The position numbers and the translations under genes were made by a program. Positions 31,831 to 61,908 of a stretch of 64,000 bases of DNA are shown piece after piece; the first letter of the stretch is position 1; each line of letters starts with the position of its first letter. The stretch lies in the NCBI RefSeq assembly GCF_054482595.1, contig NZ_CM137008.1. One strand, written 5' to 3'. The notes beneath the pieces were generated by a model. That model worked only from the letters and a program-made list of their open reading frames with translations. It was not told where the DNA came from and made no database searches.

Positions 31831-32130
31831 CGAGCAGCATTCCTGATTTTAAACGTGAACGCCGCTGGAAGAATTATCAGGTATAGAATGGCGTCGGGTG
31901 CTTGAGGCTGTCTGGCGTTAAGCATTCGCGAGGTTCCAGATGGACAAAAGCCCCAGGCGATATTTCTATCAACCTGAGGCTCGCGTTCGAACGTAGCAAT
32001 TCGGATGTTAGTCTCTTCTTTGCAGGGAGGCAAGACATGTGTATATCACTGTAATTCGATATTTATGAGCAGCATCGAAAAATAGCCCGCTGATATCATC
32101 GATAATACTAAAAAAACAGGGAGGCTATTA

Positions 32131-56591: not shown

Positions 56592-59153
56592 TTACACCAG
56601 ACTCTTCAGGCGATAAATCCATTCCAGCGCCTGACGCGGGGTGAGTGAATCCGGATCGAGGTTTTCCAGTGCCTCGACCGCAGGCGAGGTTTCTTCCGGT
56701 ACGGACAGCAAAGACATTTGTGTACCATCCACTTGCGTAGCGGCGGCGTTCGGCGAAATGCTTTCCAGCTCACGCAGTTTTTGCCGTGCGCGCTTAATCA
56801 CCTCTTTTGGCACGCCCGCCAGAGCTGCAACCGCCAGGCCGTAGCTTTTGCTCGCCGCGCCATCCTGCACGCTATGCATAAAGGCAATGGTGTCGCCGTG
56901 CTCCAGTGCATCGAGATGCACGTTGGCGACGCCTTCCATTTTCTCCGGTAACTGGGTCAGCTCGAAATAGTGGGTAGCAAACAGCGTCAATGCCTTAATC
57001 TTATTCGCCAGATTTTCCGCGCACGCCCATGCCAGTGACAGACCATCGTAAGTGGACGTTCCACGCCCGATCTCATCCATTAACACCAGACTGTATTCGG
57101 TGGCGTTATGTAAAATATTGGCGGTTTCAGTCATCTCCACCATAAAGGTTGAGCGCCCGGAAGCCAGGTCATCTGCCGCGCCTACGCGGGTAAAGATGCG
57201 ATCGATAGGTCCAATCTCGACTTTTTGTGCCGGTACATAGCTGCCGATGTAGGCCATCAGCGCAATCAGTGCGGTCTGGCGCATATAGGTACTTTTACCG
57301 CCCATGTTCGGGCCGGTAATAATCAACATCCGGCGCTGCGGTGACAGATTCAGCGGGTTGGCGATAAATGGCTCGTTCAGCACCTGTTCAACCACCGGAT
57401 GGCGGCCTTCGGTAATGCGAATGCCCGGTTTATCAATAAAGGTCGGGCAGGTGTAGTTCAGGGTATAGGCCCGTTCCGCCAGGTTCACCAGCACGTCGAG
57501 TTCCGCCAGCGCGCTCGCGCTCTGTTGCAACGCTTCCAGATGCGGCAACAGCAGGTCGAACAACTCTTCATAAAGCTGTTTTTCCAGTGCCAGTGCTTTG
57601 CCTTTTGAAGTGAGGACTTTGTCTTCGTACTCTTTCAGCTCTGGAATAATGTAACGCTCGGCGTTTTTCAGCGTCTGGCGACGCATGTAGTTGATGGGTG
57701 CCAGATGGCTTTGTCCACGGCTGATTTGAATGTAGTAGCCGTGCACCGCATTAAAGCCAACTTTCAGCGTGTCCAGGCCGGTACGTTCACGCTCGCGGAC
57801 TTCCAGACGCTCCAGATAATCGGTCGCGCCGTCAGCCAGCGCACGCCACTCATCCAGCTCTTCGTTATAGCCCGATGCGATAACACCACCGTCGCGTACC
57901 AGCACCGGCGGTGTGTCGATGATTGCTCGCTCCAGCAGATCGCGCAGCTCGGCAAACTCGCCCATCTTCTCACGCAGCGCCTGTACCGGTGCACTATCGA
58001 CAGTTTCTAACTGCGCACGCAGCTCCGGCAGTTGCTGGAAAGCGTGGCGCATACGGGCCAGATCGCGTGGGCGAGCAGTTCGTAAAGCCAGACGTGCCAG
58101 AATACGTTCCAGGTCGCCGACCTGACGCAGTACCGGCTGTAGCCCGGCGGTGAAATCCTGCAATGCGCCAATAGTTTGCTGGCGCTCAAGCAACACGCGG
58201 GTATCGCGCACTGGCATATGCAGCCAGCGTTTCAGCATACGGCTGCCCATCGGCGTGACGGTGCAGTCGAGCACAGAAGCCAGCGTATTTTCCGCACCAC
58301 CCGCCAGGTTCTGGGTGATTTCCAGATTACGACGCGTCGCGGCATCCATAATGATGCTGTCCTGCTCACGTTCCATGGTGATGGAACGAATATGCGGCAG
58401 AGTCGTACGTTGGGTATCTTTCGCATACTGCAACAGACAACCGGCAGCACAAAGTCCGCGCGGCGCGTTCTCGACGCCAAAACCGACCAGATCGCGGGTG
58501 CCAAATTGCAGATTCAACTGCTGGCGCGCGGTGTCGATTTCAAACTCCCACAGCGGGCGACGGCGCAGGCCGCGACGGCCTTCAATCAGCGACATCTCGG
58601 CGAAATCTTCTGCATACAGCAGTTCCGCCGGATTAGTGCGTTGCAATTCTGCCGCCATCGTTTCGCGGTCGGCCGGTTCGCTAAGGCGAAAACGCCCGGA
58701 ACTGATATCCAGCGTCGCGTAGCCGAAACCTTTGCTGTCCTGCCAGATAGCCGCCAGCAGGTTGTCCTGACGCTCCTGCAACAGGGCTTCATCGCTGATG
58801 GTGCCTGGCGTAACGATACGCACAACTTTGCGCTCAACCGGACCTTTGCTGGTCGCCGGATCGCCAATTTGTTCGCAGATGGCAACGGACTCGCCCTGAT
58901 TCACCAGTTTGGCGAGGTAGTTTTCCACCGCATGGTAGGGGATCCCCGCCATCGGGATCGGCTCTCCCGCTGAAGCACCTCGTTTGGTCAGTGAAATATC
59001 CAGCAGTTGCGACGCGCGTTTTGCGTCGTCATAAAACAGTTCATAAAAATCACCCATCCGGTAAAACAGCAGGATCTCGGGATGCTGGGCTTTCAGCTTG
59101 AGATACTGCTGCATCATGGGCGTATGGGCGTCGAAATTTTCTATTGCACTCAT
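56592..59153 (-). CDS. mutS: DNA mismatch repair protein MutS
   Basis: 853 aa [43 protein letters not shown]; Walker [10 protein letters not shown]. Confidence 0.97.
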
Positions 59154-59391
59154 GGGGTTATGTCCGGTTCCCTGATATTAAATGGGGTGTGATGGTTTTT
59201 ATTTTCGTTGTAATCACATAAGGCGCACATGATACCGGAGTTAATCATTTCAGGGGAAGAAGCGAACGGCGAGTTCTTGATGCTGGTTCCGGGAAAGATG
59301 CTGTTTTGCAGCTTTTGCGTGATGCTTATGAAGCAAGTACGCAAAATTGTATCGGTTGGCGAACCCTTCTTCTTTAGAGTCATAGTGCCCT

Positions 59392-59425
59392 TTAAGATTA
59401 AGTTGTAATATAAATGCATCTTAAT
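59392..59425 (+). promoter_or_regulatory. NsrR-operator-like inverted repeat upstream of ygbA (approximate coordinates)
   Basis: aagttgtaatataaatgcatctt about 20-45 nt upstream of ygbA ATG; right half aaatgcatctt matches NsrR half-site as I remember it. Confidence 0.45.
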
Positions 59426-59439
59426 GAGGTGGAGGCATC

Positions 59440-59793
59440 ATGTCCGGCAAGCGTATCTCTCGTGAAAAACTGACGATTAAAAAAATGATCGATCTTTATC
59501 AAGCGAAATGCCCGCAGGCGTCAGCGGAGCCGAAGCATTACGAGGCGTTGTTTGTTTACGCGCAAAAGCGGCTGGATAAATGTGTGTTCGGCGAAGAGAA
59601 GCCAGCCTGTAAGCAGTGTCCGGTGCACTGTTACCAGCCTGCAAAGCGTGAAGAGATGAAACAGATTATGCGTTGGGCCGGGCCGAGAATGCTGTGGCGT
59701 CATCCGATCTTAACCGTGCGTCATCTCATCGATGACAAGCGTCCGGTGCCAGAACTGCCGGAAAAATATCGTCCGAAAAAACCTCGTGAATAG
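59440..59793 (+). CDS. ygbA: YgbA (NsrR-regulon, Cys-rich small protein)
   Basis: 117 aa ORF MSGKRISREKLTIKKMIDLYQAKCPQASAEPKHYEALFVYAQKRLDKCVFGEEKPACKQCPVHCY. Confidence 0.9.
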   Translation: MSGKRISREKLTIKKMIDLYQAKCPQASAEPKHYEALFVYAQKRLDKCVFGEEKPACKQCPVHCYQPAKREEMKQIMRWAGPRMLWRHPILTVRHLIDDKRPVPELPEKYRPKKPRE

Positions 59794-59829
59794 TATGCCG
59801 GACAGTCAGATCTGTCCGGCAATTTGCAG

Positions 59830-61908
59830 TTAAATCAATGCCGATTTATCAATTCCCAGTCGCTTCATCCGTGACAGCAGGGTCGTGCGTTTCAGCCCCA
59901 GACGTTGCGCAGCGCCTTTAGGCCCGGCAACCACGCCGTTAGTTTCTTTCAGCACGCGAACAATCAACTGATATTCATCTTCGCCCTCCTGAGCGACAAC
60001 CGTTGCGGCAGGCGGCGTTTCAGGCTCCGGTAAAGCAATATCTGGCAATGACAGCTGCAGCACGTTGCCGCGTGTTAGCAATACCGCGCGCTCAATGACG
60101 TTTTCCAGTTCGCGTACGTTACCCGGCCACTCCATATTGCTCAAGGTGCGCAACGTCTCGGCAGGAATGCTGTCGATATTGCGCCCCAGACGACGGGCAA
60201 TTTTGAAGGTAAAGGCTTTCGCCAGCAGCGGAATATCTTCCGGACGCTCGCGTAGTGGCGGAAGGTGAATCGGGAATACGTTCAGGCGGTAATAGAGATC
60301 GCTACGGAACTCACGGTCGGCGACCATTTTTTTCAGATCGCGGTTAGTCGCGGCGATTAGACGCACGTCCGTCTGAATGATTTTGTTGCTGCCGAGGCGT
60401 TCAAACTCCTGTTCCTGCAATACACGCAGCAACTTCGGCTGTAACTCCAGTGGCATATCGCCCACTTCGTCGAGGAACAGGGAGCTTTTATCCGCCAGTT
60501 CAAAACGACCGATACGCTGGGCGCTGGCACCGGTAAAAGCCCCACGCTCATGACCAAACAGATCGCTCTCCAGCAATCCGGCAGGCATCGCCGCGCAGTT
60601 CATTTTGACCATGCGGCGATTATTACGCCCACTGAGATTATGGATAGCACGGGCAATCAGCTCTTTACCCGTGCCAGTTTCACCGAGGATCAGCACGGTA
60701 CTGTCACTTTGCGCCACCATTTCAACTTGTTTAAGCACGCTGTACATGGCTTCGCTGCGGCCAATAATCTCGCCAAATTCACTATCAACATTGTTGAGCT
60801 GCTCGGTCAGGGCGAGGTTTTCATCAACCAGCCGTTCTTTCAGACGATGGATTTCCTGATAGGCGAGGGCGTTATCGACAGCGATTGCCACACGTTCGGC
60901 AATCTGGCGCAGTAAATTCAGATTGGTAGTGGTAAACACTTTCTCTTCACATTGCGCCAGTTTCAGCACGCCCAGCATGGTGTCGCCAGACATCAGCGGT
61001 AACAGGCACAAGGTTTGAATCTGGTTGCCCCAGGTATCGAACAACATGCGTTCATACGGGGCTAAATCATCCCGCTCGTGGAGATTAATCAGCAGCATCT
61101 CTTTACTTTTGAACACGCGTTCGGTGAGGGTTCCGGCTTCATCGACTTCGCTCTGTTCGTGGGCGGGATGCTGTTTATCAAGATAGTGAGTGGAGTAGAT
61201 GTTGAGTTTGTTTTTACGGTGGCTGCGTAAGACGATACTGATATCGTCAATATCGAAATAGTAATGGATTTCTTTGGCGACTTCGCTGACCAGTTCGTCC
61301 ATATCCAGGCGGGAAAGCACCGCGTTGGTGATGGCGACCAGGATGCGGAAGTTATCGCGTTCCCGGCATAACAACTCATAGTCGACATTGTTAACGACGC
61401 GGCTCTGGATTTGTTCGGTGACGACAGAAACGATCTGCGTAAATGTTTGCAGACGATTGAACTCTTTTTCGCTCCAGGGGCGATCGTCATAACGAATAAA
61501 TTCACAGCCACCAAAAATATGCCCTTCCGCCGCCAGTGGCATCAGGCAATAGTGACCAAATTTGGGGTATAGCCCACCTGCGGCCAGCTGCGGCCAGGTT
61601 TCACAAAATTCTTCGTAACTGCAATGCAGCGTATCAGGGCGCGACAAAATGCTGCGTACCGGACCGTGTGCCAGAACAGTTTCGTCTTCATATTTAATGG
61701 GGGTGTCTTTTTCACGCGATGCGTAATAAGACGCACGTTGAGTCTGCGCTTGCCACAACACAATAGCCGCGTTGTCGGCGAGCGCAGAACGCTTTACCAG
61801 TTGCGAAAGAGCCTCACACAGCGAGGCCAGATCGGGCTGCTGCAATAGTGTCCGAGTGATGTCGAACAACCCTTGCTGTCCGAGATCACTCATCGGTGTA
61901 TATGACAT
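59830..61908 (-). CDS. fhlA: Formate hydrogenlyase transcriptional activator FhlA (sigma-54 dependent)
   Basis: Start MSYTPMSDLGQQGLFDITRTLLQ inside ORF 59830..61944; AAA+ sigma-54 activator domain with GESGTGKE; C-terminal HTH. Confidence 0.94.
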   Translation of the reverse strand: MSYTPMSDLGQQGLFDITRTLLQQPDLASLCEALSQLVKRSALADNAAIVLWQAQTQRASYYASREKDTPIKYEDETVLAHGPVRSILSRPDTLHCSYEEFCETWPQLAAGGLYPKFGHYCLMPLAAEGHIFGGCEFIRYDDRPWSEKEFNRLQTFTQIVSVVTEQIQSRVVNNVDYELLCRERDNFRILVAITNAVLSRLDMDELVSEVAKEIHYYFDIDDISIVLRSHRKNKLNIYSTHYLDKQHPAHEQSEVDEAGTLTERVFKSKEMLLINLHERDDLAPYERMLFDTWGNQIQTLCLLPLMSGDTMLGVLKLAQCEEKVFTTTNLNLLRQIAERVAIAVDNALAYQEIHRLKERLVDENLALTEQLNNVDSEFGEIIGRSEAMYSVLKQVEMVAQSDSTVLILGETGTGKELIARAIHNLSGRNNRRMVKMNCAAMPAGLLESDLFGHERGAFTGASAQRIGRFELADKSSLFLDEVGDMPLELQPKLLRVLQEQEFERLGSNKIIQTDVRLIAATNRDLKKMVADREFRSDLYYRLNVFPIHLPPLRERPEDIPLLAKAFTFKIARRLGRNIDSIPAETLRTLSNMEWPGNVRELENVIERAVLLTRGNVLQLSLPDIALPEPETPPAATVVAQEGEDEYQLIVRVLKETNGVVAGPKGAAQRLGLKRTTLLSRMKRLGIDKSALI

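Follow-up and report, generated by a model that had tools for sequence, protein, structure and literature searches.

The site described here lies upstream of ygbA on an Escherichia coli chromosome, within a window of 64,000 nucleotides (the whole stretch of DNA analysed) that carries mutS, ygbA and fhlA in the same layout as K-12. The section from 59100 to 59850 has 100% identity to strain XH990 and is found in 5419 of 5426 complete E. coli genomes, annotated there as mutS, ygbA and fhlA, the last of which is spelled flhA in the PGAP annotation. In 1437 records this 751-bp region reaches only 90-95% identity, an unusual degree of divergence for E. coli. An intergenic region of 286 bp separates mutS from ygbA, and the features in and around it are collected in Table 1.

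Table 1. Features of the mutS-ygbA-fhlA locus, in window coordinates; predicted elements are marked as such.
Feature	Position	Strand	Basis or remark
mutS	56592-59153	minus	
Predicted weak -35 hexamer TAGTGC, 17-bp spacer	59383-59388	+	2/6 bases match TTGACA
NsrR operator, 11-1-11 imperfect inverted repeat AAGTTGTAATA-T-AAATGCATCTT	59400-59422	not assigned	matrix score, published CFT073 site, conservation
Left half-site AAGTTGTAATA, degenerate	59400-59410		6.7/15.5 bits; symmetric invariants A1, A2, G6, A8 kept
Predicted sigma-70 -10 hexamer TAATAT (operator positions 7-12)	59406-59411	+	
Right half-site AAATGCATCTT, exact consensus	59412-59422		15.5/15.5 bits
Predicted transcription start, ~7 nt after the -10, within the right half-site	59417-59419	+	geometry from the predicted -10
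Shine-Dalgarno GGAGG of ygbA	59431-59435	+	read from sequence; orthologue columns 30-34 G-rich, conserved
ygbA coding sequence, 117 aa + stop codon; regulated gene	59440-59793	+	open reading frame and Pfam match; annotated ygbA in E. coli genomes
fhlA	from 59830	convergent with ygbA	

The product of the 117-aa reading frame matches the Pfam family PF11756 (YgbA_NO) with E = 1.6e-40 and 138.2 bits against a gathering score of 25, covering profile positions 1-104 of 106, and is thus a member of the YgbA family. Its translation contains five cysteines (C24, C48, C57, C60 and C64), including the cluster C-K-Q-C-P-V-H-C, which suggests a metal or iron-sulfur site. Downstream of the gene, a GC-rich hairpin, GCCGGACAG-TCAGAT-CTGTCCGGC (59797-59820), occupies most of the 36-bp gap between ygbA and fhlA; a proper T-run follows on neither strand and the terminator scan made no call there, and the hairpin may serve both genes as a terminator or else act as a stabilising stem. 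The locus also varies in content among strains. For example, some E. coli, such as E138 (locus L083, 1323-1751), have an additional TOBE-domain gene, located between ygbA and fhlA, that is missing from the window, and in E. coli p4A (locus L084, 3130-4841) a deletion takes out ygbA, the operator and the 3' end of fhlA.

Several further elements were observed in the mutS-ygbA intergenic region. A 59-aa reading frame on the + strand (59229-59408) overlaps the left part of the operator and is annotated by PGAP as 'hypothetical protein' WP_000611933.1 in XH990 and others. In K-12 and Escherichia sp. MOD1-EC7003 a stop codon interrupts this frame, in E138 and E. albertii a shift leads it to an earlier stop, and in Escherichia sp. 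E1V33 a matching start is missing; the annotation is probably spurious. A weak terminator-like stem, GCTGTTTTGCAGC (59300-59312), followed by TTTTGCG, lies some 100 nt upstream of the operator, in a region where chance alone predicts ~0.8 terminator-like sites. Adjacent to it is a perfect 8-bp inverted repeat, TTTTGCGT / ACGCAAAA, with arms 18 nt apart (59313-59346). Farther away in the window, a sok antitoxin RNA (RF01794, 97.5 bits; 31896-32051, + strand) is the only Rfam match above the gathering score, implying a putative chromosomal hok/sok-type locus.

Operator sequence, motif match and conservation

The sequence-only reading had placed an NsrR-type inverted repeat just upstream of ygbA, at approximately 59392-59425, with a right half resembling the NsrR half-site and a degenerate left half, and had proposed a motif scan as a check. 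The range it gave contains the exact site, and its description of both halves proved correct. The window holds a single copy of the 23-mer AAGTTGTAATATAAATGCATCTT, on the + strand at 59400-59422, which ends 17 nt before the ygbA ATG (59440). Its right half attains the maximum possible half-site score and has the same sequence as the corresponding half in the published NsrR sites of ytfE and hmp. In its left half, which gets less than half of that score, 7 of the 11 bases are complementary to the right half.

Because a match to the 11-mer half-site is by itself not significant at this scale (2.2 matches with at most one mismatch are expected by chance in 64 kb), a weight matrix for the full 23-bp site was built. 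This palindromic matrix derives from 25 published CFT073 NsrR 11-1-11 sites (PMC5320621 Table 4), from which the ygbA site and one duplicate were omitted. Against it, the operator scores 22.6 bits, ranking first in the 64-kb window ahead of a runner-up at 12.0 bits and clearly passing the proposed scan. The score exceeds those of 20 of the 25 training sites, which range from 12.4 to 31.3 bits, and was reached in none of 200 random 64-kb windows generated by a first-order Markov model. The operator accordingly presents two 11-bp motifs (AANATGCATTT) in inverted orientation around a 1-bp spacer, with a score within the range of known sites.

The site is conserved well beyond E. coli. Orthologues were scanned in one genome per species, giving 80 ygbA loci from Enterobacteriaceae, including Escherichia, Citrobacter, Salmonella, Enterobacter, Klebsiella, Raoultella, Kluyvera, Lelliottia and Leclercia. 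In every one of the 80, the best matrix match within 300 nt upstream falls at the operator position, 12-22 nt before the start codon, so that the site accompanies ygbA throughout this set, with the presence of nsrR itself counted in E. coli only. The median operator score in these orthologues is 19.9 bits, as against 3.5 bits for the second-best non-overlapping upstream match and 1.7 bits for the best match in the first 300 nt of coding sequence. Furthermore, a site-anchored alignment of 81 sequences resolves a sharp, 23-bp island of conservation, in which A1, A2, G6, T7, A8, A11, T12, T16, C18, A19, T22 and T23 carry 1.6-2.0 bits each and outside which the flanking columns fall to ~0-0.4 bits. 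The symmetric invariants of the operator are A1/T23, A2/T22, G6/C18 and A8/T16. Even within Escherichia, the operator persists while the intergenic DNA around it diverges.

This pattern bears on the register in which NsrR reads the repeat. The protein might use a left half shifted to AAGATTAAGTT (59394-59404), with a 7-bp gap, or the right half-site alone. A repeat search returned a 16-nt dyad (59392-59407 / 59409-59424) with 75% complementarity that would suit the shifted register, and one 11-bp motif can be enough for NsrR (PMC5320621). However, positions 59392-59399 vary already within Escherichia, where AAGAT, AAAAT and ATGAT variants occur, and a dyad register starting at 59392 was rejected on that ground. 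The left half in the 11-1-11 register, moreover, keeps A1, A2, G6 and A8 in essentially all 81 sequences, arguing against both a shifted register and a lone right half, which we consider very unlikely.

The same alignment speaks to a reading without any repressor, in which the inverted repeat would fold into a hairpin at the RNA or DNA level, such as a leader structure controlling the translation or stability of a transcript begun further upstream. The segment 59396-59426 does fold to -6.1 kcal/mol (z = -3.1 relative to shuffled sequences). Among the 65 distinct orthologous sites, however, the variable symmetric positions are complementary in just 26-60%, pair 7/17 in only 18%, and no compensatory pattern is seen; it is because this compensatory symmetry is missing that the hairpin is disfavoured. 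The conserved bases suit protein contacts and a -10 hexamer but not pairing, and the predicted transcription start falls inside the repeat. We regard the hairpin as an extremely unlikely explanation of the conserved site, and retain the 11-1-11 NsrR operator.

Published regulation and operator alleles

An NsrR site at ygbA and the regulation of this gene by NsrR are already known from the literature. Mehta et al. 2015 (PMC5320621) list in their Table 4 a CFT073 ygbA NsrR 11-1-11 site, AAGGTGCATTTATATTACAACTT, with a PatSer ln(P) of -16.65; it is the reverse complement of the window operator except at position 20, where C replaces T. That study was also the sole result of a full-text literature search for 'ygbA promoter', and ygbA is not named among the top 50 genes in its Table 1. 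ChIP-seq in CFT073 gave no NsrR peak at ygbA, which the authors judge a probable false negative because ygbA is NsrR-regulated and bound in K-12 ChIP-chip (PMC5320621). For regulation they cite Bodenmiller & Spiro 2006, and for the K-12 ChIP-chip binding Partridge et al. 2009. Additionally, ygbA mRNA rises 31.8-fold in a Salmonella nsrR mutant (PMC2884951), and Rodionov et al. 2005 give the regulation of ygbA by NsrR as a personal communication. For in vivo binding of NsrR in K-12 and for the dependence of expression on NsrR, we thus rely on this literature, in part as cited within it. nsrR lies outside the window and is carried by 5425 of the 5426 complete E. coli genomes. The sequence-only reading had assigned ygbA to the NsrR regulon, in agreement with PMC5320621 and the Salmonella data, and had named the repeat its likely operator, an assignment that now has the support of the matrix score, the published CFT073 site and the conservation in 80 of 80 loci.

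At least three alleles of the operator exist in E. coli: that of the window, that of K-12 (AAGATGTAATATAAATACATCTT) and one shared by CFT073 and E138 (...GCACCTT), which in CFT073 reads AAGTTGTAATATAAATGCACCTT. All share locus, position and 11-1-11 architecture. The CFT073 site has C where the window has T at position 20, and the K-12 site has A4/A17 where the window has T4/G17. The window allele scores best against the matrix (22.4 bits in this comparison), followed by those of K-12 (21.6 bits) and CFT073 (20.9 bits).

Predicted core promoter and repression of ygbA

The alignment contains a second pattern, which is not symmetric. Besides the invariant T7, A8 and T12, 79 of 81 sequences have A11, and positions 9-10 vary freely (TAATAT, TATTAT, TAGAAT and TAAAAT), giving a conserved TAnnAT. 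As the central spacer of the NsrR motif, T12 occupies a position that varies among published NsrR sites, and A11 stands where NsrR prefers T. The -10 consensus for sigma-70 is TATAAT, and the T7, A8, A11, T12 pattern would be the signature of a -10 hexamer of this class. Exactly 17 bp upstream of TAnnAT, alignment columns -16 to -14 hold a conserved (T/C)TG whose G occurs in 73 of 81 sequences and which fits the first half of a putative -35 element.

A strict consensus promoter scan of 59100-59900 returned no promoter, since the -35 falls short of the strength it requires. Conservation among orthologues was therefore used instead, together with a less stringent sigma-70 model, based on general consensus frequencies, that scanned the 200 nt upstream of ygbA. 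In 62 of the 81 sequences, this model puts the -10 of the best sigma-70-like promoter at operator positions 7-12. The window's own TAGTGC-17-TAATAT is weak, ranking 5th among the sigma-70-like candidates in its 200 nt. A mapped ygbA start was found neither in the accessible supplements of the Cappable-seq study (PMC4782308) and of Kim et al. 2012 (PMC3415461) nor in those of a Salmonella Cappable-seq study (PMC8396566), and the overlap of promoter and operator therefore stays a prediction.

Could the promoter account for the conservation by itself? If so, the conserved block would be the ygbA core promoter only, its likeness to an NsrR site coincidental and the induction by nitric oxide indirect. 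The near-universal TAnnAT at positions 7-12 with a -35-like TTG 17 bp upstream would be expected on such grounds, as would the CFT073 ChIP-seq data without a ygbA peak (PMC5320621). A promoter, however, needs neither the symmetric invariants A1A2/T22T23 and G6/C18 nor the perfect 11-bp NsrR half-site downstream of the -10, and would leave the score of the site against an independent NsrR matrix as well as the K-12 ChIP-chip binding cited in PMC5320621 unexplained. A promoter without an operator is, in our judgement, very unlikely indeed.

The best explanation overall is very probably that an NsrR dimer bound to the 11-1-11 dyad represses ygbA, with promoter occlusion as the proposed step. The dimer would contact the dyad through the perfect right half and the weaker left half, the symmetric pairs A1/T23, A2/T22, G6/C18 and A8/T16 being the contacts expected of a dimeric repressor. 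Given that the operator would hold both the -10 and the likely start (~59418), with the weak -35 just upstream, bound NsrR, covering about -19 to +5, would exclude RNA polymerase; NsrR thus probably blocks the ygbA core promoter, as judged from the arrangement of these elements. Inactivation of the NsrR cluster by nitric oxide, relieving repression, is established for the NsrR family. At ygbA, damage to the cluster would likewise lead the repressor to leave and the gene to be transcribed, from a predicted leader of ~22 nt that carries the GGAGG ribosome-binding sequence.

The embedded -10 would also bear on the shape of the operator, whose left half is probably degenerate because it carries this hexamer as well. 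More tentatively, and with somewhat under even confidence, we propose that operator and core promoter form one fused element, with the -10 (TAnnAT) on positions 7-12 including the base at the dyad centre. Were this true, the degeneracy of the left half would be accounted for in all Enterobacteriaceae examined, and the E. coli alleles could set differing nitric oxide thresholds or basal levels of ygbA expression. The differences among alleles (T4/G17/T20 in the window, A4/A17 in K-12, C20 in CFT073) might then also explain the missing CFT073 ChIP-seq peak.

The importance of these results beyond correct annotation is small, since the ygbA NsrR site and its regulation were already published. The footprint across 80 species, which resolves the operator as a sharp 23-bp island, and the three E. 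coli alleles are small additions to the known site. The coincidence of a conserved putative -10 with the degenerate left half is a modest new point, and offers a promoter model for ygbA.

Comparison with other operators

A different regulator could in principle bind the site, such as another protein of the Rrf2 family, for instance IscR. Nothing specific points to one, beyond the thought that an AT-rich dyad might suit other proteins; the match to the NsrR matrix, the only regulator matrix run, is of top-quartile strength, and published genetics assign control of ygbA to NsrR (PMC5320621, PMC2884951). The chance that some other regulator is responsible is practically negligible. The operators of IscR (type 1) and of Streptomyces coelicolor NsrR are likewise AT-rich dyads overlapping promoters, and both proteins are dimeric winged-helix repressors of the Rrf2 family with an iron-sulfur cluster (in part from PMC9338935 and PMC5411485). 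Their consensus sequences differ from that of the ygbA site, and nothing in the comparison, made with the NsrR matrix, points to IscR.

Close counterparts at other genes are the E. coli NsrR operators of ytfE, hmp and hcp, which share with ygbA the 23-bp 11-1-11 dyad and the consensus AAGATGCATTT-N-AAATGCATCTT. The ytfE site is a perfect palindrome scoring 31.1 bits, whereas at ygbA one half is perfect and the other is degenerate, a difference that likely arises because positions 7-12 of the ygbA operator would double as the -10 hexamer.
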